Shown here: piece by piece, positions 9,979 through 53,032 of the stretch
Numbering within the stretch: the first letter of the stretch is position 1
Layout: each line of letters begins with the position of its first letter
Source of the DNA: a virus
Lineage: Duplodnaviria > Heunggongvirae > Uroviricota > Caudoviricetes
Reading direction: 5' to 3' (one strand)
Virus record (IMG/VR): IMGVR_UViG_3300037067_027627
Length of the DNA: 64,000 bases
Notes under the pieces: generated by a model
The model's input: only the letters and a program-made list of their open reading frames with translations
Told to the model about the DNA's origin: nothing
Database searches by the model: none
Translations under genes and position numbers: made by a program

Positions 9979-10259
9979 AACGCGGGACTGTTCTGTTTGA
10001 TATACGCGTGCGGATGTTAGATGTAGATCCGACACGCGGGGCTTTTGCGATCGTATTACAGGATTCCGAGGGTGGAATAGAGTGCCCGATTGAAGCATAC
10101 ATGAATACTGTGGATGCTCCGATGGATGATCTGCGTATTAAAATGGCATTCGGTGACATTCGTGATGCAGTTATAGAAGTCATGCGAAAACATTCAGAAG
10201 ACGGAAGCATTGTATACAGGAATAAAAATAAAACGTATGTATCTAGGAAACGCCAGTAG
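9975..10259 (+). CDS. Hypothetical protein
   Basis: 94-aa ORF translationally coupled to the upstream ORF. Its stop codon overlaps the 3' end of tRNA-Asn. Confidence 0.45.
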   Translation: MKRGTVLFDIRVRMLDVDPTRGAFAIVLQDSEGGIECPIEAYMNTVDAPMDDLRIKMAFGDIRDAVIEVMRKHSEDGSIVYRNKNKTYVSRKRQ

Positions 10260-10322
10260 CAGGGCTCGAACCTACGAAACAAGATTAACGGTCTTGCGTG
10301 TTACCAACTACACTATACTGGC
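10251..10322 (-). tRNA. tRNA-Asn (anticodon GTT)
   Basis: Perfect acceptor GCCAGTA/TACTGGC. D-stem GTGT/ACAC. Anticodon arm CAAGA-CCGTTAA-TCTTG (C33 is unusual). T-arm GTAGG-TTCGAGC-CCTGC. Discriminator G. Confidence 0.7.
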
Positions 10323-10325
10323 TCA

Positions 10326-10409
10326 TCGGTGATGCAGGATTTGAACCTGCGAAAGCCCTTCGACAACGGATCTTGAATCCGTCCCGTTTGACCACTCCGG
10401 CAATCACCG
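10326..10409 (-). tRNA. tRNA-Leu (anticodon CAA)
   Basis: Acceptor CGGTGAT/ATCACCG. Anticodon arm ACGGA-TTCAAGA-TCCGT. 15-nt variable arm TGTCGAAGGGCTTTC. T-arm GCAGG-TTCAAAT-CCTGC. Discriminator A. Confidence 0.75.
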
Positions 10410-10411
10410 TA

Positions 10412-10495
10412 TACGCCGGGCAAGATTCGAACTTGCGAAAGCCCTTCGACACCGGGTTCTAAGCCCGGCGGATTTGACCACTCTCCCACCGACGT
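10412..10495 (-). tRNA. tRNA-Leu (anticodon TAG)
   Basis: Acceptor ACGTCGG/CCGGCGT. Anticodon arm CCGGG-CTTAGAA-CCCGG. Same long variable arm as the neighbouring Leu. T-arm GCAAG-TTCGAAT-CTTGC. Discriminator A. Only 2 nt from the next tRNA. Confidence 0.75.
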
Positions 10496-10536
10496 TCTTG
10501 TTAGTTTTGTTATCTTTGTTAGTTCCCTCTCGGGAA

Positions 10537-10619
10537 TGCGTCCGACAGGACTTGAACCTGTATTGTTTCCTCGTGCTCGACTTTAAATCGAGTGCGTTCA
10601 ACCGTTTCGCCACGGACGC
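10537..10619 (-). tRNA. tRNA-Leu (anticodon TAA)
   Basis: Acceptor GCGTCCG/CGGACGC. Anticodon arm CTCGA-TTTAAAG-TCGAG. Long variable region. T-arm ACAGG-TTCAAGT-CCTGT. Discriminator A. Confidence 0.65.
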
Positions 10620-10622
10620 GCA

Positions 10623-10704
10623 TAAGTGGAGCCGGATTCGCACCGGCGACGTTTCCTCGTCCAGAATCTCGATCTGGTGGAGTCGGCTTCTGTCCCATCC
10701 ACTT
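10623..10704 (-). tRNA. tRNA-Leu (anticodon GAG)
   Basis: Acceptor AAGTGGA/TCCACTT. Anticodon arm CCAGA-TCGAGAT-TCTGG. Variable hairpin ACGAGGAAACGTC. T-arm GCCGG-TGCGAAT-CCGGC with G55. Discriminator A. Confidence 0.65.
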
Positions 10705-10738
10705 TCTTTCAACTATCTGGAATTTCCAGACAGTTGAA

Positions 10739-10823
10739 CGATACCGGTAGGAATTGAACCTACAAAGTCTTTCGACCCGGCTGCTTTCAAGGCAGTTTAG
10801 CGCACCACACTACCCACGGTACC
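10739..10823 (-). tRNA. tRNA-Ser (anticodon TGA)
   Basis: Acceptor GGTACCG/CGGTATC. Anticodon loop CTTGAAA. Long variable arm. T-arm GTAGG-TTCAATT-CCTAC. Discriminator G. Confidence 0.55.
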
Positions 10824-10891
10824 ATTTGTTCTGCGAGGCGGTACAGGGGTGTTACCCCGCGACCTTTAGGAGAATCGCCCTACCCCGCATA
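10824..10891. ncRNA. Unresolved 68-nt structured spacer between tRNA-Ser and tRNA-Cys; possibly a non-canonical or degenerate tRNA
   Basis: Contains the GGGGTGTTACCCC hairpin and GGCG...CGCC pairing, but no canonical T-loop could be placed. Confidence 0.2.
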
Positions 10892-10974
10892 AGGACATAA
10901 CAGGATTCGAACCTGTGAAGGGAAATCCCTGTGGATCTGCAATCCACCGCAATTGACCGCTCTGCCATATGCCC
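10892..10974 (-). tRNA. tRNA-Cys (anticodon GCA) with an unusually long (14-nt) variable region
   Basis: Acceptor GGGCATA/TATGTCC. Anticodon arm GTGGA-TTGCAGA-TCCAC. T-arm ACAGG-TTCGAAT-CCTGT. Discriminator U, the universal Cys identity. Extra hairpin AGGGATTTCCCT in the variable position. Confidence 0.55.
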
Positions 10975-11011
10975 ATTTCTTTTCAGGTATTAAGTAATTC
11001 TTAACACCTCA

Positions 11012-11096
11012 CGCCCCGTGCTGGAATCGAACCAACGCCACCCAACGGGTGCACAACGATTAGCAGTCGTGGGGATTACCGCTCTCCCAACGGGGC
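11012..11096 (-). tRNA. tRNA-Ser (anticodon GCT)
   Basis: Acceptor GCCCCGT/ACGGGGC. Anticodon loop CTGCTAA. Long variable arm GTGCACCCGTTGGGTGGC. T-arm GTTGG-TTCGATT-CCAGC. Discriminator G. Confidence 0.65.
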
Positions 11097-11241
11097 AAAA
11101 AACCTATACTAGCCGCTTATAGACTAAGCAAGCGACACGAGGACAGACTATTCAGTAAAGAGACAACCTTAGAAACGTTTCCATCTCTTTCACCGTATCT
11201 GAACATAATAATATGTTGGGCGGGGATCTATATAAAGTTAG

Positions 11242-12366
11242 TTATCGCCGCTCGATTTGTTGTTTTTCTGCATGCATCCGCGTGCTTGAAATTCTTTGCC
11301 CTGTCGCGTCAGTAACCAGTGGTATGAGACAGATGGCAACAGGAGGAAGTGAATACATTTTCCGAAGATCGTTAACGTACTCAGCATTCTCTTTTGTTTC
11401 TTCACTTGCTACGAGAATGTCGTAGAATGGGTTCATTCCGACATCTCCCCACGCATCCACCAGTGGTTTAAACATGTAATCCGCATGATACTTCTTTGAT
11501 TTTATATAGTCTTTTATCTGGTTTATACGAACTTTGTACGGCTGAACCGGATGAGTTTTCTTGCTTGCCATGTGATCGCTTGTAATCCCGATATGTACAG
11601 CTCCCCCGTTCCCAGCAAGAGAGAATGCCGCATCTAATAACGCTCTATGCCCTGCGTGTAAGAGATCGAATGTCCCTCCAACCACAATCTCGGGGCGATT
11701 CATACGAATCATCCCTAGAATATTCTCAACCATTTTATTTCCCAAGAGTTTCTGGATAACCGGGGTATAGAATATCGGATCGCGTCTCATGAGTTTGATA
11801 AGAATATCTTTGCGCGCGCGATAGTATACTGTGGCCGGAACAAAAGCGTATTCTTCCCGTATCCAGTTTTCGATTTCCTCATAATGATGTGACGCCGTGT
11901 AAGCCAAATCAATATCCATAACCAAGGCTTCGTCAGGGTTTCGCGGAGGTTCCACATGTTCTGTCGCCAGAATATACGACTTTATTCGTTCGATAACAAC
12001 GAGATCTGGGGTCTTACCCGATCGGTTGTATAGTTCTGACATTACAGATTCACATCCATCCGCACTTATCCTTACATTTTCATGATCTGTGGAATGGGTG
12101 TCATAAACAATATCGTGGAAGAATAACGCCAGAATTGCTTCGTCCGGGTAATTAAACTCGTGACGGAACCACGCAGCGTTTGATATGCATTCAGTGAGAT
12201 GGTTTATGCTGTGGTATTTACGTGATTTATGCGTATACGGTTTCACTACAGTAATGAAGAAGTAATCGAGACTGTCGTGGAGTCCCAGATTTTCGCATGC
12301 ATCTCGCCACATGTCATATAAATACTGCTGGGATTCCGTTGGTATAGCAATTCTTGAATTTGCCAT
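11242..12366 (-). CDS. HD-domain phosphohydrolase fused to NMN/NaMN adenylyltransferase (NadM/NadD-like cytidylyltransferase fold)
   Basis: The C-terminal half carries the nucleotidyltransferase (H/T)xGH motif, GGTFDLLHAGH. The N-terminal half has HD-like His/Asp residues (HSINHL...FFHDIVYD). Start trimmed to MANSRIAIP at 12366 to remove overlap with the divergent gene. Confidence 0.6.
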   Translation of the reverse strand: MANSRIAIPTESQQYLYDMWRDACENLGLHDSLDYFFITVVKPYTHKSRKYHSINHLTECISNAAWFRHEFNYPDEAILALFFHDIVYDTHSTDHENVRISADGCESVMSELYNRSGKTPDLVVIERIKSYILATEHVEPPRNPDEALVMDIDLAYTASHHYEEIENWIREEYAFVPATVYYRARKDILIKLMRRDPIFYTPVIQKLLGNKMVENILGMIRMNRPEIVVGGTFDLLHAGHRALLDAAFSLAGNGGAVHIGITSDHMASKKTHPVQPYKVRINQIKDYIKSKKYHADYMFKPLVDAWGDVGMNPFYDILVASEETKENAEYVNDLRKMYSLPPVAICLIPLVTDATGQRISSTRMHAEKQQIERR

Positions 12367-12419
12367 AATAACTCTTGATACAGGAAGAATATAAATATAG
12401 CTACTACCATTTTTAATAC

Positions 12420-13580
12420 ATGGATGACATCGCGTGGATGAATGAGCCTGAGGCTGCAAAAGCACTTGTATATAATATGCTCAATGTAACGCGTATTTTG
12501 TCTCCGACAGGAATGGAACGCGAGATGACCGCGTTCTGCAACGAAGAATTAATAAAATGCGGATTTGAAACGCACATCGATACACATGGAAATATAATGG
12601 CAATACGTGGGCGGGATTCCCAAGATAAATTCATTCTTCTTAATTCTCATATGGATACTGTCCCGATAAACAGGCCGCGATCTCGCCTTTCACTTAGAGA
12701 AGAATATGTGAAAAAACGGAACGATATTCTCACTCGCAGGTTTGGTGTAAAATGCAGATATGTATCAGAAGGGAAAGCACTGATAAGAGCGAGAGATCAC
12801 TATGATACATCAGGATCGTTGTCATTTGAAAGTAGGGAAATGCACGAGTTATATGACCAAGAGCACAAGCAATTCCAAGCCGAACTCGAAGATTTAGAAC
12901 GATTTGTGAAAGACAACGAGAAAAACACTGACGTGTGGGTAGAAGAAGTATCAAACCCTTGGGAACCGCAAAGAATAGTATATAATCCAAGTGCTACTGC
13001 CATCGAGATCACCGAAGGACGGGGAGAGATGTATATGGGCGGGGATGATAAAGCCGGGGTTGCGATGATTCTTACTATTGCTCAACTCACGGATTACCCG
13101 TTGAAAATATTATTTACGGTATCAGAGGAAGAATTCGATATACGCGTTCCCGACCCAGACGATTCTGACCGTACTATCCGTGTATCCGGGGTTCACACGA
13201 TTCCCCCCGACTTCTATGACGATGTTGCGTTTGATTTGACACTGGATAAAGGAGAGGGCAATCTGCTTGTTCCAAAAATAAGCGGGAAGTTGTTATGTGG
13301 TGAAGATCTCGTGACTTTCATATTGCATGTATCAGAAATTGCAGATTACCCGCTTAAAGTAGTGGAAGGATTACGATGTGATGCACTTTACATACGTGAC
13401 CATGTTCCAGCCGTGAATATGTCCACGGGATATCACAACCCGCACCGTCCTAACGATTATGTTAATATTATAGAATCGCATAATATGATGGCTCTTGTAC
13501 GCAAAATTATAACAGAATATAATGCAACCAAGCCTGTGTTTGATCGTATTAAGAAAAAGAAACCTAAAACATCCGATTAG
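12420..13580 (+). CDS. M20-family metallopeptidase (ArgE/DapE/peptidase T-like)
   Basis: LNSHMDTV (H-x-D), GGDDKAGVAMILTIAQ (metal-binding Asp) and FTVSEEEFD (EE) form the M20 dinuclear-zinc signature. Confidence 0.65.
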   Translation: MDDIAWMNEPEAAKALVYNMLNVTRILSPTGMEREMTAFCNEELIKCGFETHIDTHGNIMAIRGRDSQDKFILLNSHMDTVPINRPRSRLSLREEYVKKRNDILTRRFGVKCRYVSEGKALIRARDHYDTSGSLSFESREMHELYDQEHKQFQAELEDLERFVKDNEKNTDVWVEEVSNPWEPQRIVYNPSATAIEITEGRGEMYMGGDDKAGVAMILTIAQLTDYPLKILFTVSEEEFDIRVPDPDDSDRTIRVSGVHTIPPDFYDDVAFDLTLDKGEGNLLVPKISGKLLCGEDLVTFILHVSEIADYPLKVVEGLRCDALYIRDHVPAVNMSTGYHNPHRPNDYVNIIESHNMMALVRKIITEYNATKPVFDRIKKKKPKTSD

Positions 13581-13629
13581 TTAATATTATATATGTAAAC
13601 GCGCTATTATCACATGGTGAAAACACACT

Positions 13630-14001
13630 ATGGACATACTAGAATTCTTAGTTGAGAACGAAAGCGCGATCCTGCTCGTTATCTCCGTACTGCTTGCAAT
13701 TGTCGCAAGGTACTTCCAGAACCAGTCGAAGATCCTGTACGACGCTGGGCAAGCAATTGTTGATCTTGAGCAGTTATTCCTCGCAGATATCAAGGATGGA
13801 GTTATCTCGAAGGAAGAGATCGATCTTCTTGTACCGAAGGTAGAAGCAGCAAAGGCAGCAATCCTCGCAGTTGTGGAAGTGTTCACTCAGCCCGTTACAT
13901 TCTCCCAGAGACTCGACATTCTTCTCGGATCTACAGGAGCACGGAATAAGATTGCACAGATCCAGATTAAAACGCAGACAATGCAGATGAAGCGTAGATA
14001 A
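13630..14001 (+). CDS. Hypothetical protein
   Basis: 123-aa ORF; hydrophobic N-terminus. Confidence 0.4.
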   Translation: MDILEFLVENESAILLVISVLLAIVARYFQNQSKILYDAGQAIVDLEQLFLADIKDGVISKEEIDLLVPKVEAAKAAILAVVEVFTQPVTFSQRLDILLGSTGARNKIAQIQIKTQTMQMKRR

Positions 14002-14060
14002 ACGCTTAATTTTTTGGTACCGTGGAAACGCGGTACCACCGAAACAGGTGAAAAAGGAAG

Positions 14061-14342
14061 GTGATTACGATTCCTCTTAGATGTGGCAAGACACAAATTG
14101 GCAACAACATCCGCAAATTGCGAAGAGAAGGGTACCCGCAACGTCAAGCAGTGGCTATTGCAATGAGTCATTCACGGCGATGTAAAACGGGCAAGGTTTC
14201 ATGGAAGACCGGGCGTTCTAAAAAACGCATAGGGTGGGGGTTCAAGAAATGTGCATTATCTGTGATACGAACTTCTCCGATTAATACACCAAAACAGTTC
14301 ACAAGAACAATGTCCAGAGTGCGTAAAATCTGCCGCAAATAA
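14061..14342 (+). CDS. Small basic protein, paralog 1 of a tandem trio
   Basis: 93 aa, K/R-rich. Shares the C-terminal motif KKCALSVIRTSPINTPKQF with the next two ORFs. Confidence 0.5.
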   Translation: MITIPLRCGKTQIGNNIRKLRREGYPQRQAVAIAMSHSRRCKTGKVSWKTGRSKKRIGWGFKKCALSVIRTSPINTPKQFTRTMSRVRKICRK

Positions 14343-14412
14343 TGCAAAATCAAACTTTTTTTGAAACACCTTTAAATACCTTTCTGCGCAATACAGATAT
14401 CGGTGCAACTAC

Positions 14413-14781
14413 ATGAGTAAATGTGTTCGAATCAACGGGCAACTCTGTTGTTCGTGTATGCCGTGTAGTAAACCGAAACGACGGAGAAATATTATGGTTA
14501 AGCGCAGAACTCACAGACGTGTTGGAACGCGGAAGGGATACAACAAGAAATGTGTCATCTCGATCATCCGACGCGCAAAGATCGGAACTGCAAAGCAGTT
14601 CAGTATGGCAATCAAGAAAGCACGGAAGGCTTGCCGGGCTACTAAGGTCAAGGCATCTACCGGTGGACGCCGCAAGGTCGGAACCAGACGCCGGAAGCTG
14701 GGCACACGCAAGTGCAAGTACGGCCACCGCAAGGGTAGCAAGAGATGCCGTAAGACTCCACGCAAAGCATCACGCCGGTAA
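14413..14781 (+). CDS. Small extremely basic protein, paralog 2 (about 40% K+R)
   Basis: Carries the motif KKCVISIIRRAKIGTAKQFSMAIKKARKACRA. Codon usage is consistent with a real gene; it sits in a local high-GC block. Confidence 0.55.
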   Translation: MSKCVRINGQLCCSCMPCSKPKRRRNIMVKRRTHRRVGTRKGYNKKCVISIIRRAKIGTAKQFSMAIKKARKACRATKVKASTGGRRKVGTRRRKLGTRKCKYGHRKGSKRCRKTPRKASRR

Positions 14782-14801
14782 TTCAGTAGGAGTGGATTGA
14801 C

Positions 14802-15182
14802 ATGGTAAGAAAGAGTGGAAGACGAAGAACAACCCGCAGAACAGTCACGAAAGTGGTTGCCGGTAAGAGATGCGTATGCAAATCTGTCCGTGGAAAAGCT
14901 GCGAAGGGCGCATTCAAGAAGTGCCTGATCTCGGCAATCCGTGGAACCAAGGTTACCACACCGAAGTCAGCACGTCGCGCATTCAACGCCGCTGCAAAGC
15001 GGTGCAGTGCACGGGTTCTTGGAAAGCCGGTTGCAACCCGCCGACGCCGCAAGGGTGTTCGCAGGGCTGCACCACGCCGCAGACGATCGGCATCTCCGCG
15101 CATGAGCGCCGGATCGTGGAGTGGAAACATACCACGCCGCGCAGAACGGTTAAGCCACAGCAAATACTGGCTCAACCAGTAA
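14802..15182 (+). CDS. Small extremely basic protein, paralog 3
   Basis: Carries the motif KKCLISAIRGTKVTTPKSARRAFNAAAKRCSA, homologous to paralog 2. Confidence 0.55.
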   Translation: MVRKSGRRRTTRRTVTKVVAGKRCVCKSVRGKAAKGAFKKCLISAIRGTKVTTPKSARRAFNAAAKRCSARVLGKPVATRRRRKGVRRAAPRRRRSASPRMSAGSWSGNIPRRAERLSHSKYWLNQ

Positions 15183-15231
15183 CTTTTTTTAAACGTGAAC
15201 AGGGTTTGACCCCACGGTCACGCGATTGATA

Positions 15232-15837
15232 TCACACGAATTCTGTAGTGGTTTCTGATCCGTGCCCAGACCATGTTGTAAATGTTTTCTGGTAACACTC
15301 CAAGAAGTCTTGTATATCTTCGAGATTATCGAAGAGGGTCATCGAACTATACTCGCTGCATGTGTTCCACGGTTTGCGCAGACCAACCCCGATTTTATTC
15401 TTTGCGAGTGCCGCATTTATCGTGTCTGCGCGGTCGTCTACCACAACAGCAACGCGTGGATTGTCGAACATCGATGTTTTGTCGGAAGATACAACAACCT
15501 CGTCATATACAAGATCGTGTATTTTCAGCCATTCTACGAGTTCCGCACGGTATTCGTCCTTGCGATGAGATGCGATAATCACATGGAACTTCGATTTCAT
15601 GAATTTCAGGAACTGTTCGGCATACGGGTATGGATTATAACTGCACTGGTGAGAATGGACGCGATTAAAAACTTCAATCACCTGATCCTGACCAGAGTAT
15701 TTATATATCGCTTCCCATCCGGTACATTCCCGTCGTTTGGGAATGCGAACCCCCATTTCAGATCCCGTTGCAAAAACAGCATCGTGAAAAGCCCATAGTG
15801 TTTCATCCACATCAACGATTGCGATTGGCTTCGACAT
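15232..15837 (-). CDS. HAD-superfamily hydrolase, 5'(3')-deoxyribonucleotidase-like
   Basis: The N-terminus MSKPIAIVDVDETLW carries the HAD motif I, DxDx(T/V). Confidence 0.55.
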   Translation of the reverse strand: MSKPIAIVDVDETLWAFHDAVFATGSEMGVRIPKRRECTGWEAIYKYSGQDQVIEVFNRVHSHQCSYNPYPYAEQFLKFMKSKFHVIIASHRKDEYRAELVEWLKIHDLVYDEVVVSSDKTSMFDNPRVAVVVDDRADTINAALAKNKIGVGLRKPWNTCSEYSSMTLFDNLEDIQDFLECYQKTFTTWSGHGSETTTEFV

Positions 15838-19151: not shown

Positions 19152-19546
19152 TCATGCTGATCCTGACCTGATGTGGTGCTCTTCCGTAGTCGTTCTCTTT
19201 CAATCTTCATAATCAATTCATTATACGCGGAATCAGAGAACATACTGGTGTGCCTCTTGATCCACCTTTCCATAATATCCAGCGTTGCGATCGTGGCGGT
19301 GCGGGCTGATTCCTTTGCTGCAATACCCATCATGTATTTACATTCGTCCTTCGTAATTGGTTTCGGTGCCGGGGTGTGCAGATGGAAACTTAAATTAGGA
19401 CACCCCAGTTCTATTTTCATACATTCAGTACATGATTTATATTTATGGCAAGTCCCTATTCCTTTCATTGTGGTTTCACCGGCTTCCTGCAACACTGGCA
19501 TTTGCTCGAACCGAATCAAGAGTTCGAACCACCCCGAGATACTCAC
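19148..19546 (-). CDS. Hypothetical Cys-rich protein
   Basis: 132-aa ORF. Confidence 0.4.
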   Translation of the reverse strand: MSISGWFELLIRFEQMPVLQEAGETTMKGIGTCHKYKSCTECMKIELGCPNLSFHLHTPAPKPITKDECKYMMGIAAKESARTATIATLDIMERWIKRHTSMFSDSAYNELIMKIERERLRKSTTSGQDQHE

Positions 19547-20171
19547 GGAATATCAACGCGTTTGTTGATTTTGGAAGCTTCGTTCTCGTGTAAGCGGCAT
19601 CGATCATGTCTAATAAAGCATCGATCTCATCTCGGTTCGTTGTTGGTGGTGCGGGTTCGAATGCAACACCTTTCCCGTCCAGAAGATTAATACCAAACTG
19701 GAGAGTGCGGAACGCAGATCGCAATGCTTTCTCTTCTGATACAGATCCTTTCCGTTTTGTGATATCAGCTAGTTGACTTATCGCCATCCCACGGACTGAC
19801 CAGTACGTAGATGCAGCCAGATTCTTCGAAACGATATCACGAAGTTTATCATACTCTACGGATCTTGTGATTACATGCGGGCTCATTACTGCCCAAATCG
19901 CATTACAGTTCCCTTTTATAAGTAAATCTACAAGGTGCCCGATCTCCATGAACTGGAACTCCCATTCCCCAAGATCGTTTTCGTGTTTGCGGAATGGCAT
20001 AGTTTCCGGAATTCGCCACCCTTCCAATATTCTTAACGTAGGATATTGATACACTATCATGATGTCGTGGTCACTATCAGGGGTGTCCATCCCCCACATA
20101 TGCGATCCAATTACAGTTCTGAAAAGTTCTTTCCCGGGTAAATTTTGACCGGGAAAAGTTTTAGTTTCCAT
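19476..20171 (-). CDS. Pol-beta-superfamily nucleotidyltransferase (minimal nucleotidyltransferase fold)
   Basis: GSHMWGMDTPDSDHDIMIVY fits the G[SG]-x9-13-D-x-[DE] signature. Confidence 0.55.
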   Translation of the reverse strand: METKTFPGQNLPGKELFRTVIGSHMWGMDTPDSDHDIMIVYQYPTLRILEGWRIPETMPFRKHENDLGEWEFQFMEIGHLVDLLIKGNCNAIWAVMSPHVITRSVEYDKLRDIVSKNLAASTYWSVRGMAISQLADITKRKGSVSEEKALRSAFRTLQFGINLLDGKGVAFEPAPPTTNRDEIDALLDMIDAAYTRTKLPKSTNALIFREYLGVVRTLDSVRANASVAGSR

Positions 20172-21253
20172 TATCGCGCCTCGTTCCTAATCATTTTCTC
20201 TTGTGACCAGTGTTTACTCGTTGTCACGTGACCCGTACGAACATACTTCGCAACGTTCTGGTCGAATTCATTGAATGGGTACGAATACATACTTCTGACC
20301 ACAATTCCTTCGTGCCCGTGTCTAACAACAAGATCACCCCATGATTTCACTTCGCGTTCTAGGTCTCTTGCAGATGATATCCGCATCGGAACCAGTGGGT
20401 ATCCTTGGTGATGTTCATTATACATCTCGTATAACGTCGGTGTCGTAGAGACGTTCAGTATCTGCGCCCAGTCCTTAACCGATGCCCAGCTCGCCCACTC
20501 TGCATGATTGTGATCATAAACTGCGAAAAGTTGCAGGTATCCCCTGTTGAGGGCAAGATCTCCTATATAATGAATGGAGTGTTTCGCATATAACCACTCC
20601 CCAAATATCTGTACACCGTCCGGAATCAGATCCCGCATCACCGCATGCATAGATTTCACCATCGCAAACGATGGGTGTGGGGCATCGTGCGCATTCCGCG
20701 CAGCAACACCACGATTATCGAACGTGACATTACTCCCATCCATCTTCAAAGTGAATACGATATCCTTGTTGCACAGGGATTCCCACGGCATTATCCCATT
20801 TTCACGTTTCTCTTCAACGTGACCCCCGGGACTATTGCGGAAGAATGGAGTATGCGGGTACTTTATGCGTAGTCCTTTTGCGGAGGACAGATTTGGGATC
20901 GTGTGGGGAACGCCCCACTTGTTAAACTCCGTAAATGGTGACTTCACAACGATCAGTTTCTTCGGGTAGATCGCAGGAGAAATCCCGCACCATTTCCTGA
21001 GTTGATTCGGGGTGATTGCGCCTTTCTCTGCATCCATATGATGATTCTCACACAATGGCGCACCGTTCCCGTACACATACCCGCCATTTTCGGTATGTGC
21101 GTCCCACAATGCCCGTTCGAGTATGTGATGAGCGTCAACCGCCGCGTTCTTACACCACGGTACACAACACTTTCCATTATGTATCGCGAATGTTTCTTCC
21201 CGGAACTTCGCCCTTACCGGGTTCTGTTCCTTTCTGTTTGACATTGTTATCAC
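20171..21253 (-). CDS. HNH endonuclease domain fused to an ATP-dependent RNA ligase (Rnl-like nucleotidyltransferase)
   Basis: N-terminal HNH: CCVPWC...DAHHI...LCENHH. Ligase motif I KxDG in VFTLKMDGSNVTF. Motif IV-like EGIVVRS and motif V-like LYAKHSIHY. The first ~70 nt overlap the upstream ORF, so the true start may be downstream. Confidence 0.6.
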   Translation of the reverse strand: MITMSNRKEQNPVRAKFREETFAIHNGKCCVPWCKNAAVDAHHILERALWDAHTENGGYVYGNGAPLCENHHMDAEKGAITPNQLRKWCGISPAIYPKKLIVVKSPFTEFNKWGVPHTIPNLSSAKGLRIKYPHTPFFRNSPGGHVEEKRENGIMPWESLCNKDIVFTLKMDGSNVTFDNRGVAARNAHDAPHPSFAMVKSMHAVMRDLIPDGVQIFGEWLYAKHSIHYIGDLALNRGYLQLFAVYDHNHAEWASWASVKDWAQILNVSTTPTLYEMYNEHHQGYPLVPMRISSARDLEREVKSWGDLVVRHGHEGIVVRSMYSYPFNEFDQNVAKYVRTGHVTTSKHWSQEKMIRNEAR

Positions 21254-26896: not shown

Positions 26897-27247
26897 TTAT
26901 GATTCCTTCTTTGGATCACGTTCTTCGATAATCGCCGATAGTAAGATGAGGTAATTTCGGGCATCCGAAACTCGTTGTGAGAACCCTTCTGTAGCTCCAG
27001 TCCCGCCCCACCCCAGCCGTGTTCCGGGTCTCATCGCAGCCTTGGCAATAGCTTGGATATGCTTCATCATAAAAACAAGGCATACTTCTTCCGGGGTGAT
27101 CCCAAGTTGATTCGCGGTTGTCTTGAAGTTAACCAATACATCAGTATCGGCAGCATATTCAGATCGCTTTGTTATGAGGAGACTACGTTCAGCCCCCTCG
27201 AACATATTGTAGAGATTTTCAAAAGATTGTTTATCCATGATCTTCAC
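26897..27247 (-). CDS. Hypothetical protein
   Basis: 116-aa ORF. Confidence 0.45.
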   Translation of the reverse strand: MKIMDKQSFENLYNMFEGAERSLLITKRSEYAADTDVLVNFKTTANQLGITPEEVCLVFMMKHIQAIAKAAMRPGTRLGWGGTGATEGFSQRVSDARNYLILLSAIIEERDPKKES

Positions 27248-28674
27248 ACCTGCGCGTTTCTCCGTACCTGATCAAACGTCCAGTCACGGATAATACTCCC
27301 GTTCAGGAACACCGTGTTCAGGACATTATATCCCGGGACACATACTTCGTTTACAGTTGCATAGTGACCATCCTCACACGTGAGGATAAGCCGCCCGCGT
27401 TTGGAGGCTTTTCGCGCGTCTGATACCGGGCGTTTGTAAACGTCGTGCCATACCCCGTCAATATCGATCGCACTGCACTTGAATGCAAAACTCTGGGTAT
27501 CACGATTGACTTTCTGGAGAAGAGCACCGCCCATCCCGAACACGATATTGGACGGGGCGAACCGATACTTTCCGACAACCTCGTATAAAATCTGACTGAT
27601 CATATCGAGGCTGATGTAATCGCCATAGATAACACTGACGTGTGGATCGAGAACACGATACCCGCGTTCATTAACAGTCCCACCGTAGTGCTTCCACAAA
27701 AGTTCGAGAACCTGCAACGACATCCAAACCGGGTCGCCACTGTCTGGGCGGAGGACAACTTTGCCTTTACGCGCGATGATTTGGTCTTTCAGTAACTCAC
27801 CGAAATATTTGTCTGCTGCACGAATTGCATCGTATGAATCAATAACAACAGATGCAATCGCATCGTCCGGAGCACGACCGATGATCTCACGGTACGCTTC
27901 CTCCTCGTTCCCTTCCCCGTAACTGGTCACAGTTGAATGTTCTGCCGCATAAACGGAAAGGAGAATCGGATCGCGACTCATCTTGGCACTGTAATACTTG
28001 TTTGCATACCGTTTCGCAAGTAGATTGTCGCTCCCGGCGAAGTTCACTAAGTGTGCCATCCCGCCAATACCTGCGGTTTCTACAGATGATGCGCCACGGA
28101 ACCCAAAATCGTTCAGGTGCACAATCGATGCATGTTCACCGGCTTTTACTGCCCACCCTTCGATCACTTTACGAACTTCGCGACTCATTGTGGCTACGGT
28201 AATAGGATACCATACCAATTCAAGAAGTCCCTCGTAGAAGTTTGGAAGCCAGAAAGAATCGGGATCCGTGTTCTCAACGGTCATTAACACATTTTTGACC
28301 GGAACGACCATACCCTCTGGTACAGTCTTGATTTGCAGCGGAAGTTTCCCATCAAGATCGTTCGCAATGTGGCGAAAACCCTTCTCGTTGAAAAACTTAA
28401 ACCCGAATATCTCTTCGCTATCTGCAATAGCCTCGTCAATGGTTTCGTTTGTGATAACCTTCCCGGCGAGATATTTCTTCAAGTAATATTGAGTGCCGAA
28501 GCATACCGTTTCCGGGAACATACCCCCGCGACTCTCTAAATACGAGAACACAGTTCTGGTATTCTTTGGATACTGCATCCAGTGAGTTAATTTATATGCG
28601 TCAGTCGCTTCTTCCATGATGCAATCTGCCAAGATTGCCGCAGTGATAGGATTTTCTTTATTTACTTTGTCCAC
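27244..28674 (-). CDS. Nicotinamide phosphoribosyltransferase (NAMPT / NadV-like)
   Basis: 476 aa. The motifs GIGGMAHLVNFAGSDN and NIVFGMGGALLQ match NAMPT-family signatures; the overall length also fits. Confidence 0.7.
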   Translation of the reverse strand: MDKVNKENPITAAILADCIMEEATDAYKLTHWMQYPKNTRTVFSYLESRGGMFPETVCFGTQYYLKKYLAGKVITNETIDEAIADSEEIFGFKFFNEKGFRHIANDLDGKLPLQIKTVPEGMVVPVKNVLMTVENTDPDSFWLPNFYEGLLELVWYPITVATMSREVRKVIEGWAVKAGEHASIVHLNDFGFRGASSVETAGIGGMAHLVNFAGSDNLLAKRYANKYYSAKMSRDPILLSVYAAEHSTVTSYGEGNEEEAYREIIGRAPDDAIASVVIDSYDAIRAADKYFGELLKDQIIARKGKVVLRPDSGDPVWMSLQVLELLWKHYGGTVNERGYRVLDPHVSVIYGDYISLDMISQILYEVVGKYRFAPSNIVFGMGGALLQKVNRDTQSFAFKCSAIDIDGVWHDVYKRPVSDARKASKRGRLILTCEDGHYATVNEVCVPGYNVLNTVFLNGSIIRDWTFDQVRRNAQV

Positions 28675-34091: not shown

Positions 34092-35589
34092 TTATCTCAC
34101 CGCGTTGATGTCAATCCTCTCGACTTCATCGACAAGTGTAGTTCCATTCATCTCGTAAAGATTCAGGAACCGCAGAGAGTTGTCTGCCCACCCGCCAACT
34201 GTGCAGTGCTTCCGCTCGCCCTCTGGGAACTGCGTGGTTCCGTAGTGCGCCAGATCGAACGTGTACACGAACGGGTTGTTTCCGGTCTTGATACGGAACG
34301 ACCTGAAAGCATCGTAGCAACTTGGTCGCCCGTATCCCTGCTCGTCCGTGAAGAAGATAATCCGGTCTACATCAGGCATATCCTTTGCGACTGCGCTAAT
34401 ACACAGTCCGGTGTGGGTTGATCCGCCGGTTCTATCTCCAGCATCACGTATCTTGTCTACGTTTGTGAGGATACTGTCCCGTGGGTTTGCCCGAACAATC
34501 GACACGCTTGTACCGAATGCGTATACCTTGCAATCATCAGCGCGCGATGCAACCATAGCTCCGAAGACGTTTCCGATATCCTTGTGAGTTACCATAGACT
34601 TCTCGTGGATACTACTGTTCATCGATCCGCTGTTATCACAGAATACCGCAGTTTTCCCCGGGATGCAAGTCATATTCTCTGCGCTAACCGCCATTGCGTC
34701 TGACAGTGCCGCCTTGATCTTCTCTACCCCGTTGTAGTTAAGGCTCTCGATCTGTCTGTATGCAGTGTAGTACTGCACCGGGATCATTCGTGATCTACGC
34801 ACACGATCTTCATCTGCAACTTCTGCACAAACATCACTGATGTTGACACCGCGCTTCATAAGGTTGCGAAGGTTTCGGATGATACCAAGGTATCCCATTG
34901 CATCAAGGATGTGTGTCCAGTTCTTCTTTGTGGAACCGTTGACCATGATATAGTTCTCCCATGTCTCCGGAAGAGGCAGAGTGCCACCGATAATGTTCTG
35001 GAACATTGTCTCCTGCCCATCGCGTGGCTTTGGGTGTGTCAGGAACATAACGTCCCGTGGCTTGATCATCATGTCATCCTTCGTATACTTGGCAAACTGG
35101 TAACTGTCGAAGCTCACGAACGCCTTCGCAAGACCGCGCTTGATCGCCATTGGCAGGTAAGTTCTCTCCATCTTGTACTGCTTGTTCAGCATCATACAAT
35201 ATGCAAGAAGCTCTGTCATGTCGTCCACACGCTTGATCGACTTCGCAACGTAGTTCGAACCATTCGGGATGTCCTTTGCCCCTGCGTAGATCGCCTCAGC
35301 GAGAATCACCGTTGTGGGTGTTCTCATGTTGAACCGGTTACGCGTGTACCAAGCACCTTTGAGTGCGAGTTCCGGGTCATCCGATCTCGAAATGTTCCGG
35401 ATAAGATCGACAAATCTCTTGTTCGATGCCTCTCCCGACTCGTAAAACGTATTCATCTTCGCAACGGTTGTTGCCGCGCGCAGGATGAACTCCAGCTTCT
35501 CGGATGGCTTGAATGCCTCTCCACCCTCGTAGTTCACGGTGACCTTTGCAGCCACCTTTCTCTTTCCAACTGTCTTGTTAAACTGCATG
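34092..35589 (-). CDS. rsr: Ro60-like TROVE-domain protein with a C-terminal vWA domain (Rsr ortholog)
   Basis: ~500 aa, alpha-helical repeat N-terminal region plus C-terminal MIDAS FCDNSGSM; this architecture and length match Ro60/Rsr. Start placed at MQFNK, which has SD GAGGTGA 6 nt upstream. Confidence 0.65.
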
Positions 35590-35633
35590 TTTCTCACCTC
35601 ATGAGATTGTATTCGCATCACGATACGGTGAAA

Positions 35634-50725: not shown

Positions 50726-53032
50726 TTATGCCCCTTCCCATTCGTCGCGGGGGTACTTTGGATTATCGTCGTAATTGTGTTTGTAATTATCACGAATCAC
50801 GAATCTCCCGGAGAGTGTCCCGTGCGAATCATAGTAATTACGCTCGTTAATACCAGCACGATATACAGACTTTGATATGACACGATTCGTATACAGATCT
50901 GTCCACATATTCAGCGTTGTCAATCCGAGGGCAAGATCCACTATTGCCCTCTTATCTTTGATAGACAAGGTTTCGATTTTATCATCACACCGCTTGCAAG
51001 ATTGTGCCGGTTTTGTGTCTGGAATTAACCCTTCTCCATAGTTATTCAGCATCTTTCCGTATTCTTTGAAATATGCACGTACTTGTAACCCGAGAGTATA
51101 TGTGAAGTTGTCAATCACACCTTCGTCAAATAAATATCTCCAGTTCTCCGGTGTTGTATTTCCCATCGCGTACTTCACGACCATCAACTTCTCTTTTGAC
51201 GGGGTTGTATTGATAACATACTGAGTATCTACGCCATTGATAAACCCGGCGCTGATGCGTTTATTAGCAGTATATTCAGATTCCTCCTGCTTTTCCTCCT
51301 CATATACTTCGCGCATGTGCTGCATACGAAGATCTGCTTCATATTCTATACGCGATTCTTTCGCGTTGTCGTAAAACCACTCGCTTATCAAACCTTGTTC
51401 CAGATAAGACGTGAGATCTGATACCGATATTGCGCCGGTTATAAAATCTACAAATATCGAGTGTTCTACTGTTCCCACCATATATCCGGATTTAACACCG
51501 AGATCTTCGATATCTTCGATTGCATCTCTGTCAATGTAATCATCGCGCGCGTCGCGAATGATCTCGCGCCCTTCTGCATCAAACGAAGGTACTTCTTCAC
51601 CTTCTCCTTGTTCATACCCTTCGAATAGTGATGTTTCCCGATGTGACTGTTTTAATGTAGACAGTGCCTCGCGCATTCTAGCATGCTTCTCTTCGACTGT
51701 CAACTCACCAGTGATGGCATGACGGTATTTGGCACGACCGTTGATGCCAATACGATGAACGAATGGTTGTATCCGCCCATCCATAAGCATATCATCCCAA
51801 TCACCATCCGATATCTTAAAGTCGTTATACTGTGCAAGCAACCTGCCTTCATCGTATGACATAATCGACGATGTAAGATGCCCTTCAATGTCTGTTTGCA
51901 CAGTCGGGGATCCACTCTTGCCGGATACGAAATCGTCTCTGCCAAGATTCTTATATTTCACTCGGCATTTCTGCCCGGTGATTTTCGGAATTTTCTGGTG
52001 GTGCTTCGGTTTTTTAACTCCTTGCACGCTTGGGGTTCCCAAATATTCGTATTCCCAATCAGTGCCGAACCCACCCCCGAACGTGTATGTTGTTGGGTAT
52101 ATATACTTACCACGGTGGTAATTTGGGTTACCTGCAAACTTATCGTGTCTCCAATCCATCGGGGCCGATGCAATTGCCAATTCGAGTTCACTTGCGTTTT
52201 CTATCGCAGCCTTAACTGCGATCATCACCGTGTATAATTCATTTACATCTACGAAATCTGTGCTCGTATGCGCGTTGTAATACCCAGCCGATAAGTTAAC
52301 GCACGGGGTATACTGTGAGATCACGTAGGTGTCTGCATATGATCCGCCAACATCGACAAACTTCAAGTTAGCAGACCTCTGCGAAATTACGTTAAACGCG
52401 TCAACAAATTCTTTTGGAGCACACGTTCTTCCACAATACTCTGATATGAGATCATTTCCACCACGTCGATCTATAGTGAAACAGCAAAGGATATTGTTAA
52501 AATCTCCAGATGTTAACGCTTCTGCACCCTTTCCTCCGATTTCCTCGCTCGCGGTGAAAATTATTTTCATCGGCAAGTTGGTATGCACTGCAAGTGTAAG
52601 TGCTACTGCAATCCCACACTTGTCGTCTCCACCAAGCATCTTACCATTTCCGGTAAATACATCGTCAAGCCATCGGTATTGGACATATTTTGCGATATCC
52701 GCGTCTTCTTTTCCCTGAACTGTATCTGTATGCGCATTTATACAAACAAGTTTATGCCCGTCAACCCCGCGTGCTGCATATACGTTTTTCACAGCGTCTG
52801 TATGCACCAGAAACCCGGCCTTCTTCAACGTGGATATACAGTATTCTACAACCTCGTCTTCACTCCCTGTTGGAGAGTACATCTTAAACAAGTCTTCCAG
52901 TATAAGTATGAGTTCTTGCTTGAGTGGTTTGCTGTACACGGTGCGTTGAAGCACGCTCTGCATCCATGTTGAAACACGATCCTTGAAATCGGACTTCTCC
53001 GGGGCAATAATATTTTTACGCTTACTGGGCAT
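50726..53032 (-). CDS. 768-aa protein: N-terminal M20-family metallopeptidase domain fused to a ~480-aa C-terminal region of unknown function
   Basis: CINAHTDTV, GGDDKCGIAVALTLA and FTASEEIGGKG form the M20 signature, paralogous to 12420..13580. Confidence 0.6.
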   Translation of the reverse strand: MPSKRKNIIAPEKSDFKDRVSTWMQSVLQRTVYSKPLKQELILILEDLFKMYSPTGSEDEVVEYCISTLKKAGFLVHTDAVKNVYAARGVDGHKLVCINAHTDTVQGKEDADIAKYVQYRWLDDVFTGNGKMLGGDDKCGIAVALTLAVHTNLPMKIIFTASEEIGGKGAEALTSGDFNNILCCFTIDRRGGNDLISEYCGRTCAPKEFVDAFNVISQRSANLKFVDVGGSYADTYVISQYTPCVNLSAGYYNAHTSTDFVDVNELYTVMIAVKAAIENASELELAIASAPMDWRHDKFAGNPNYHRGKYIYPTTYTFGGGFGTDWEYEYLGTPSVQGVKKPKHHQKIPKITGQKCRVKYKNLGRDDFVSGKSGSPTVQTDIEGHLTSSIMSYDEGRLLAQYNDFKISDGDWDDMLMDGRIQPFVHRIGINGRAKYRHAITGELTVEEKHARMREALSTLKQSHRETSLFEGYEQGEGEEVPSFDAEGREIIRDARDDYIDRDAIEDIEDLGVKSGYMVGTVEHSIFVDFITGAISVSDLTSYLEQGLISEWFYDNAKESRIEYEADLRMQHMREVYEEEKQEESEYTANKRISAGFINGVDTQYVINTTPSKEKLMVVKYAMGNTTPENWRYLFDEGVIDNFTYTLGLQVRAYFKEYGKMLNNYGEGLIPDTKPAQSCKRCDDKIETLSIKDKRAIVDLALGLTTLNMWTDLYTNRVISKSVYRAGINERNYYDSHGTLSGRFVIRDNYKHNYDDNPKYPRDEWEGA

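Follow-up and report, generated by a model that had tools for sequence, protein, structure and literature searches.

The proteins J of phage phiX174, VII and mu of adenovirus, P6.9 of baculoviruses and the protamines are small and extremely basic, contain few or no acidic residues, and neutralise packaged DNA. In J of phiX174, a basic region binds DNA and a hydrophobic C-terminus anchors the protein to the capsid; mammalian protamines carry Cys cross-links and zinc. To our knowledge, none of these proteins comes from a tailed phage. The internal proteins IPI–IPIII of phage T4 are small, basic and encoded outside the main structural cluster; many copies are packaged and injected with the DNA, and their N-terminal capsid-targeting sequence is cut behind a Glu by the prohead protease. 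Lys/Arg-rich proteins resembling histone H1 and Hc1 were described in large aquatic "moraphages", where a role in DNA compaction was proposed without proof (PMC12619734). Here we analyse a stretch of 64,000 nucleotides from a tailed virus (IMG/VR record IMGVR_UViG_3300037067_027627; hereafter, the window), a segment of a huge-phage-type genome in which three neighbouring open reading frames (ORFs) on the + strand, denoted A, B and C, encode proteins of 93, 122 and 126 amino acids (aa). Sequence comparisons identify A, B and C as paralogues in a previously undescribed family of small polycationic proteins from a clade of huge (jumbo-type) tailed phages.

The three consecutive ORFs lie exactly where the first-pass annotation of this DNA had placed them (Table 1). 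Lys and Arg together account for 28.0% of the residues in A, 38.5% in the long form of B (42.1% in its short form, see below) and 32.5% in C, compared to a median of 12.5% in the other ORFs of the window. The earlier estimate of 35–45% Lys+Arg therefore fits B and is too high for A and C, and the isoelectric point, estimated at more than 12, is calculated as 12.0 for A, B and C alike. Acidic residues are limited to one in A (residue 23) and one in C (residue 115), neither of them N-terminal, and there are none in B. With 28–42% Lys+Arg and zero or one Asp or Glu, the proteins have the compositional trait of protamine-like and viral core proteins. The region had also been described as locally GC-rich, which holds for B (GC content 0.52) and C (0.57) but not for A (0.447, against ~0.44 for the window). 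Among the Lys codons of the three genes, 62% are AAG, compared to 42% in reference genes. The + orientation of the genes was read correctly, but they are not isolated in a minus-strand region; they form the end of a + strand block that spans 12420–15182.

A core of ~35 aa with the pattern [FY]-K-K-C-[ILVA]-x-S-x-I-R...T-x-K...K-x-C is common to A, B and C. The three core peptides quoted at first pass are correct and belong, in the order quoted, to B, C and A. A three-way alignment of the cores contains 14 invariant columns, and composition-adjusted BLASTP over the core gives E values of 6e-9 for A–B, 4e-6 for A–C and 3e-5 for B–C, which places the homology beyond similarity of composition. Tandem Repeats Finder detected no DNA repeat array spanning the three genes, indicating that the paralogues are old and not a recent repeat. 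AlphaFold, run on A and B with a 29-sequence alignment as input, models the core as a helix-loop-helix with a predicted local distance difference test score (pLDDT) of 90–95.

A profile search of 5.8 billion proteins retrieved 26 cluster representatives, and an exhaustive scan with HMMER, covering 1.84 billion representatives, gave 39 hits at E ≤ 0.001, one of which is a spurious repeat protein. The combined family consists of about 53 members (cluster representatives) with lengths of 59–142 aa and medians of 34% Lys+Arg and 0.9% Asp+Glu, and none of the 53 has an annotation or a Pfam domain. The exact A, B and C proteins are absent from a collection of 15 billion proteins, no B- or C-type protein was found in IMG/VR, and no C-type protein was found in the GTDB species genomes. 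Cultured phages were matched neither by a near-identity DNA search with the 6 kb around the locus nor by a protein search with a neighbouring 1461-aa protein. As far as the databases show, the family appears to be confined to one huge-phage lineage.

The genes stand in the same order and among the same neighbours at no fewer than 11 other metagenomic loci (L001, L002/L003, L004, L005, L090, L092, L095, L096, L098, L100 and L102) on contigs of up to 130 kb, including 75.9 kb for L001, 130 kb for L004, 60.9 kb for L005 (a contig of NCBI assembly GCA_964574915.1) and 125 kb for L098. Gene C lies directly 3' of B in all 11 related loci examined, A lies upstream of B wherever enough flanking sequence is present, and L092 and L102 contain a fourth, C-like copy. 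Orthologues differ by 0.35–0.77 nonsynonymous substitutions per site (dN), with synonymous divergence (dS) above 1.2 or not computable, and in most orthologue pairs the protein identity equals or exceeds the nucleotide identity. Orthologues of A are present in L001, L004, L005, L090, L092 and L102. Each of the three genes is preceded by its own Shine–Dalgarno sequence. The conserved synteny, the saturated dS with dN of 0.35–0.77 and the confidently modelled core uphold the earlier suggestion of a shared fold rather than mere low complexity.

It could be argued that A, B and C are not genes at all but chance ORFs or a translated GC-rich intergenic repeat, or that the true genes are the antisense ORFs that overlap B and C (14350–14727 on the − strand, 125 aa, and 14783–15175 on the − strand, 130 aa). 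These are as long as the sense ORFs, and public gene calls chose the antisense strand in two contigs (L001 10334–10819 and L005 10605–10922, both −) while missing B and C, so that the locus is mis-annotated by automatic gene callers. Codon adaptation fails to separate sense from antisense frames and is thus of no use as a coding test here. Long antisense ORFs arise because Arg, Lys, Ala and Gly codons keep the opposite strand free of stop codons, and we regard the antisense ORFs as by-products of codon composition; it is the comparative evidence that separates the two strands. Disruption of the frame in relatives, named at first pass as the mark of a repeat that is not a gene, was not observed: the frame is intact, with the single exception of C in L004 (10316–10701), where two compensating frameshifts, one of them beside an A6 run, surround a core that is still encoded. 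These frameshifts are probably assembly indel errors rather than signs of a pseudogene. The + frame family of ~53 representatives with invariant residues and a fixed Cys spacing, the protein identities that in most orthologue pairs match or exceed nucleotide identity at saturated dS, the Shine–Dalgarno sequences, the confident AlphaFold core and the absence of a DNA repeat effectively refute the notion that these are not genes. On this comparative evidence, we conclude that A, B and C are genuine genes and that purifying selection maintains them.

The two Cys residues of the core are invariant in 52 of 52 aligned family members and are separated by 26 residues in 50 of 53. The number of Cys per member ranges from two to six; apart from the core pair they occur singly, as C-x-C, or at the ends of C-x8-C or C-x10-C hairpins, and the family sequences contain none of the CxxC/CxxH knuckles of zinc ribbons and zinc knuckles. 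All ten A-type proteins have an extra Cys pair, placed symmetrically where the modelled N-terminal hairpin opens (C8 and C41 here, in addition to C64 and C91 of the core), compared to none of 51 distinct stand-alone versions of the same N-terminal module (described below). As the extra pair is found only where the module is fused to a Cys-bearing core, this suggests that the four Cys of A-type proteins act together. In C-type proteins, the conserved hairpin Cys is preceded, two positions earlier, by a Cys that many relatives have exchanged for Tyr or Phe; several of these relatives instead have a His 5–6 residues upstream. Exchange between Cys and His is typical of a metal ligand, and the C-type pattern consequently fits a metal ligand better than a disulfide. 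A Cys site shared between two chains, or disulfides, are possible alternatives.

The three proteins differ in the modules attached to the core. Gene A starts at the GTG codon at 14061 or possibly at the ATT codon at 14070, which yields MPLRCGK, the sequence with which its relatives begin. The AlphaFold model of A has a mean pLDDT of 85.2 and contains helices at residues 10–22, 27–43, 58–71 and 77–91, which form two hairpins (10–43 and 58–91). The N-terminal module has the consensus MPLRCGK..G.NI..LRR.GYPQ.QAVAIA.SH.RRC and matches the phrog_2423 profile with E = 4.8e-9 over residues 10–47; in the same PHROG search B had no match and C only a weak one to phrog_28243 (E = 0.074). In its stand-alone form, the module is found in at least 491 IMG/VR loci, in proteins of 40–106 aa that always consist of an N-terminal module of ~40 residues followed by a Lys/Arg-rich tail (pattern MPLKKGKS..N[IV]..L...GYPQKQAVAIALS plus the tail). 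In the IMG/VR contigs L010–L089 the consensus of the stand-alone module is MPLKKGKSQKT[IV]S.NI.KL..EGYPQKQAVAIALS. Many of these proteins end in an aromatic motif, RFSxIARPQRFxG[VI]F. In many small phages, the module gene lies immediately behind a portal or head-morphogenesis gene. The upstream ORF is a portal gene in five of the six stand-alone loci with a large upstream ORF, and in the cyanosiphovirus KBS-S-2A the module gene (CPKG_00040, an ORF of 51 codons) follows a head-morphogenesis gene.

The stand-alone proteins resemble A in their layout, with a polycationic tail behind a small hairpin of helices, and the aromatic end motif of many of them has a counterpart in the separate aromatic tail of C. 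Unlike A, they lack both Cys and the shared Cys-bearing core, and the phrog_2423 module is missing from B and C. The phrog_2423 family is itself uncharacterised, so membership provides context rather than function. No Pfam family covers the module: DUF7218 scores 12.5 bits against A (Pfam cut-off 27) and DUF6496 scores 14–18 bits against the stand-alone modules (cut-off 24). We found no literature on phrog_2423-type modules, and the phiCbK genome paper does not mention gp080, the module protein of that phage. Foldseek hits among viral models were limited to small, uncharacterised phage proteins with the N-terminal module of A, all at E > 0.1. A weak BLASTP segment (E = 0.57) raised the possibility that the core is a diverged phrog_2423 hairpin, which is rejected by an hhalign probability of 0.27%.

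Protein B consists of a Cys-rich beta-hairpin, a basic MV[RK]RR stretch, the core, an Arg/Lys/Gly linker and the C-terminal C-x10-C module RKCKYGHRKGSKRCRKTP, which is present in one copy here and in two copies in some relatives. The hairpin reads CVRINGQLCC in the window, CRLINGRIVC (C-R-L-I-N-G-R-I-V-C-S) in relatives, and C-K-C-H...G-R-x-V in other loci. The AlphaFold model has a mean pLDDT of 68, with block means of 79–95 for the core helices (42–54 and 60–84), a beta-hairpin at 5–7/10–12, and low confidence in the remainder. Two in-frame starts are available, the outer preceded by a GGTG and the inner by a GGAG Shine–Dalgarno sequence, and the GGAG before the internal ATG is identical in 4 of 4 loci read. 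In 8 of 11 loci, among them L001, L004, L005, L095, L096, L098 and L100, the N-terminal extension between the two starts is conserved in amino acid sequence while differing at many synonymous sites; L090, L092 and L102 lack it. Given that the internal ATG has its own conserved GGAG, it is plausible that B is produced as a long and a short isoform.

Versions of the C-terminal module of B also occur on their own. Stand-alone ORFs of 25–45 aa of the form MAR[RK]CKYGHRKGSKRCRKTP... are present in ~25 unrelated metagenomic contigs with GC contents of 0.37–0.67 (L104–L131 and L132; for example L109 930–989, L128 5645–5701 and L132 1135–1251). These "MARRCKYGHRKGSKRCRKTP" ORFs, here termed CKYG ORFs, encode tiny basic phage proteins of unknown function that are 70–95% identical to the module in B, some with an RRRRRR tail, and are almost never called by gene callers (2 database entries). 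Their neighbours have almost no Pfam or PHROG matches, and the context is uninformative. We took the module to resemble the 2-cysteine adaptor domain, a likeness that the Pfam search did not bear out: 2C_adapt matched neither B of the window (E ≤ 10) nor P0015, a family member with two CKYG modules (E ≤ 1).

Protein C begins with a basic MVRR or MVRK sequence, followed by a hairpin-like stretch that ends in C-x-C or x-x-C, the core, an Arg-rich linker and a conserved tail with the consensus GSWSGN[IL]PRRAER..HSKYW. An alignment with P0002, P0005, P0012 and P0014 shows G104, W106, S107, G108, P111, R112, R113, A114 and R116 of the tail to be invariant.

The genes are accompanied by conserved non-coding signals. 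A 55-nucleotide element upstream of B is present in all six loci compared (the window, L001, L004, L005, L090 and L092) and retains 27 invariant columns despite the saturation of synonymous sites. Its 29-nucleotide consensus occurs once in the window, and the element forms no stable RNA fold (z = 0.44) and matches no Rfam family; nor does the A–B–C locus as a whole contain an Rfam family or a stable RNA fold. The element is probably a phage promoter together with a 5' leader that supplies the Shine–Dalgarno sequence for long B. The window contains five copies of the TTTAAATAC box of this element; of the four outside it, three are situated 20–50 nucleotides upstream of ORF starts (3269 on the + strand, 9052 and ~61560 on the − strand); one copy precedes the gene of a DNA-repair exonuclease. 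The TTTAAATA box upstream of B resembles a T4 late promoter, but the same 9-mer precedes the exonuclease gene, and the resemblance was not used to argue for late expression. The site at the end of C is likely the end of the transcription unit, and L004 and L090 also have a T-run of this kind after C. With terminator-like sites on both sides, A–B–C is, as read from these predicted elements, a unit with its own expression signals. The perfect stem GGUACCGUG-GAAA-CGCGGUACC in the leader of A is missing in relatives, where A abuts another ORF.

Table 1. Positions of the genes, protein modules and non-coding elements of the A–B–C locus in the window.
Feature	Residues	Position	Strand	Remark
Terminator-like hairpin + T6		13990–14015	+	after preceding gene
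9-bp stem with GAAA loop, GGTACCGUG-GAAA-CGCGGUACC		14016–14037	+	leader of A; read directly from sequence
Gene A		14061–14342	+	93 aa, GTG start
A, N-terminal helical-hairpin module	~5–43	14073–14189	+	then basic linker
A, shared core	F61–C91	14241–14333	+	
Conserved element between A and B		14349–14405	+	TCAAAC-T7-G-AAACA-CC-TTTAAATAC-n9-CAATAC-n6-TCGGTG
Gene B		14413–14781	+	122 aa from ATG 14413; 95 aa from internal ATG 14494
B, N-terminal Cys-rich beta-hairpin	C4–C18	14422–14466	+	then MVKRR basic stretch
B, shared core	Y43–C74	14539–14634	+	then Arg/Lys/Gly linker
B, C-x10-C module RKCKYGHRKGSKRCRKTP	R99–P116	14707–14760	+	
Gene C		14802–15182	+	126 aa
C, beta-hairpin-like TVTKVVAGKRCVCKS stretch	14–28	14841–14885	+	
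C, shared core	F38–C68	14913–15005	+	then Arg-rich linker
C, conserved C-terminal tail GSWSGNIPRRAERLSHSKYWLNQ	104–126	15111–15179	+	
Terminator-like hairpin + T7 run		15165–15190	+	overlaps C stop codon

The + strand block that ends in A–B–C begins with an M20-like hydrolase gene (12420–13580) and a gene for a 123-aa membrane-anchored protein (13630–14001). The related loci have the same arrangement, with an M20-like hydrolase and an N-terminally anchored protein of ~123 aa upstream and a HAD-type phosphatase downstream on the other strand. The window contains 14 tRNA genes in two − strand clusters (470–2565 and 10251–11097), including four tRNA-Leu, two tRNA-Ser, tRNA-Arg(TCG), tRNA-Lys(CTT) and tRNA-Cys. 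Its genes for nicotinamide adenine dinucleotide (NAD) salvage and RNA repair encode an HD + cytidylyltransferase-like protein (11242–12465), a HAD/polynucleotide-kinase-like phosphatase (15232–15837), a nucleotidyltransferase + RNA ligase (19476–21253), a nicotinamide phosphoribosyltransferase (27244–28674) and a Ro60/TROVE protein with a vWA domain (34092–35621); an NAD kinase is also present in related contigs. Other genes of the window encode the DNA-repair exonuclease, a LAGLIDADG endonuclease, a radical-SAM protein, a tyrosine-recombinase-like protein and two M20-like hydrolases. The latter are divergent paralogues of the M20 family of metallohydrolases (ArgE/DapE/PepT-like; phrog_4191), encoded at 12420–13580 on the + strand and 50726–53032 on the − strand. 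The first of them always opens the + strand block ending in A–B–C, and its best NCBIfam hits, which are weak, are lysine or ornithine deacylases; a link between this hydrolase and the Lys-rich proteins is pure speculation. In L004, an IS200/IS605-type pair is located ~3 kb downstream of the array (12978–14450) and consists of a Y1 transposase and a TnpB/Cas12f-like protein split in two ORFs.

Comparisons with known families yielded no relatives of the core. The core, B and C have no significant match in Pfam, NCBIfam or the PDB sequences, and searches of the PDB sequences with two family profiles returned only noise (E ≥ 0.4). Histone-like, Alba and Cren7/Sul7 proteins, which had been proposed for checking, gave no match, a result that for Alba and Cren7/Sul7 comes from the Pfam and PDB searches alone; the chromatin proteins histone H1, Hc1 and HU likewise matched neither as family models (Pfam, E ≤ 10) nor as solved structures in the PDB. 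The alternative of ribosomal-protein-like RNA chaperones led to bS21, which is often carried by large phages and is similar to A, B and C in size, charge and helical-hairpin architecture. The profiles are unrelated: homology is rejected by an hhalign probability of 0.07% against E. coli bS21 and by the lack of a Pfam Ribosomal_S21 hit. Among ribosomal proteins in the PDB, the best match has E = 0.41 over a basic stretch of uL18, and no ribosomal family of Pfam or NCBIfam was matched.

A, B and C most probably bind and neutralise nucleic acid. Each paralogue combines the core with its own small accessory module bearing further Cys or His, the two being joined by disordered Arg/Lys/Gly-rich segments. 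The Arg/Lys segments would bind nucleic acid without sequence specificity, and the Cys residues would form a metal (zinc) site or disulfides, within or between chains, that could lock the small fold or cross-link neighbouring molecules. In a mode of action like that of phiX174 J, adenovirus VII and mu, P6.9 and the protamines, the proteins might neutralise and organise the very long phage DNA in the capsid or on its way into it, with the end-modules (the phrog_2423 module of A and the aromatic tail of C) serving as anchors to head or portal proteins. We weakly favour such a role as DNA-neutralising proteins associated with the packaged genome, with a probability of about 0.35. Beyond composition, the only evidence for it is that the A-type module of small phages is encoded near head genes and that the conserved termini look like anchors. 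A more elaborate version, which we consider doubtful, is a huge-phage "protamine" system, in which the genome would be packaged with three or four polycationic proteins cross-linked by Cys or zinc and the end-modules would tether the DNA to the portal or the capsid interior.

Several observations weigh against an association with the packaged genome. The general view is that tailed phages fill preformed proheads with DNA that is essentially naked and that internal proteins enter before it. A, B and C contain no T4-type capsid-targeting/prohead-protease site (Leu/Ile-x-Glu). The head-gene context applies to the N-terminal module of A in small phages alone, not to B or C, and is not universal even there, as the module is found in a tRNA island in phiCbK (gp080) and after an endolysin gene in Pseudomonas phage O4 (gp21). 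Neither in the window nor in any related huge-phage locus is the array located beside portal or head-morphogenesis genes; it sits among RNA-repair, NAD-salvage and tRNA genes, and no structural genes were recognised among ~40 ORFs tested. In addition, 9 of the 53 family members have Cys only at the core pair and 15 have three Cys, which means that an intramolecular four-ligand site is not universal.

The same charge and fold features would also fit chromatin-like proteins that act inside the cell and are not packaged, coating or compacting either the host nucleoid (as part of host shut-off) or the replicating phage DNA. Precedents for action on the host nucleoid include Ndd and MotB of T4 and chlamydial Hc1 expressed in E. 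coli. This scenario would agree with the location of the array among non-structural, host-takeover or auxiliary genes and with the H1/Hc1-like proteins of another large aquatic phage lineage, whose role is equally unknown (PMC12619734). We nevertheless consider it unlikely, given that A, B and C have no homology to Hc1, H1, HU or other nucleoid proteins and that it leaves unexplained the anchor-like terminal modules and the proximity of the A-type module to portal genes in small phages. It is also possible, at similarly low odds, that the proteins bind RNA, as chaperones or as ribosome- or tRNA-associated factors serving phage translation and RNA repair. The tRNA genes, RNA ligase, nucleotidyltransferase, Ro60/TROVE protein and polynucleotide-kinase-like HAD phosphatase make the neighbourhood rich in RNA functions, and the composition is like that of small ribosomal proteins, but the searches against bS21 and the ribosomal families described above argue against this reading.

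Membrane-active cationic peptides that act at lysis, as outer-membrane disruptors of the disruptin type, or as antibacterial effectors represent a further scenario, to which we assign a very low probability; in either case the Cys pairs would oxidise to disulfides outside the cytoplasm. A cationic lysis peptide is known in a phage (bioRxiv 10.1101/515445), and small membrane proteins are encoded near the array, including the 123-aa N-terminally anchored protein of the same + strand block, a protein of ~100 aa with a tail anchor (L001, L005 and L092) and, encoded between A and B of L005, a hydrophobic protein of 86 aa. The A-type module of O4 follows an endolysin gene, and both the CRLINGRIVC hairpin and the amphipathic helical hairpin are reminiscent of antimicrobial hairpin peptides. 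However, most of each sequence is rich in Arg, Lys, Gly and Thr and nearly devoid of hydrophobic residues, which sets A, B and C apart from amphipathic lytic peptides, and there is no signal peptide. The + strand block has no recognisable endolysin or spanin, the adjacent M20-like hydrolase is not of a known endolysin type, and three or four paralogues with distinct conserved end-modules would be hard to explain. The probability left after the packaged-genome role and these alternatives belongs to functions that we have not considered.

If A, B and C do form a "protamine" system, it would be the first such set of DNA-condensing proteins in tailed phages and would mean that phages with very large genomes depend on protein counter-ions or on an internal organisation as nucleoprotein. 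Since tailed phages are usually described as containing nearly naked DNA, a protamine-like set in huge phages would be directly relevant to how such phages neutralise, arrange and eject very long genomes. Independently of what the proteins do, A, B and C define a clean new protein family with a Cys-clamped helix-loop-helix core and interchangeable cationic mini-modules, and its analysis brought to light two broader groups of very small, basic phage proteins whose function is unknown, namely the phrog_2423-type proteins and the stand-alone CKYG ORFs.

Among the systems described at the outset, the T4 internal proteins IPI–IPIII show no homology to A, B and C, whose charge density is far higher. 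The Hc1/H1-like proteins of the moraphages share with A, B and C their Lys/Arg-rich composition and their origin in large phages, but A, B and C have no Hc1 or linker-histone match in Pfam at E ≤ 10 and are distinguished by a Cys-clamped core. In sequence and fold, A, B and C are unrelated to phiX174 J, adenovirus VII and mu, P6.9 and the protamines, as judged from Pfam and PDB sequence searches that included the family profile. Unlike these proteins, A, B and C combine a folded helix-loop-helix core with modular Cys/His mini-domains. By these comparisons the family is new at the sequence level, while the general kind to which it belongs, small polycationic nucleic-acid-binding proteins, is already known.

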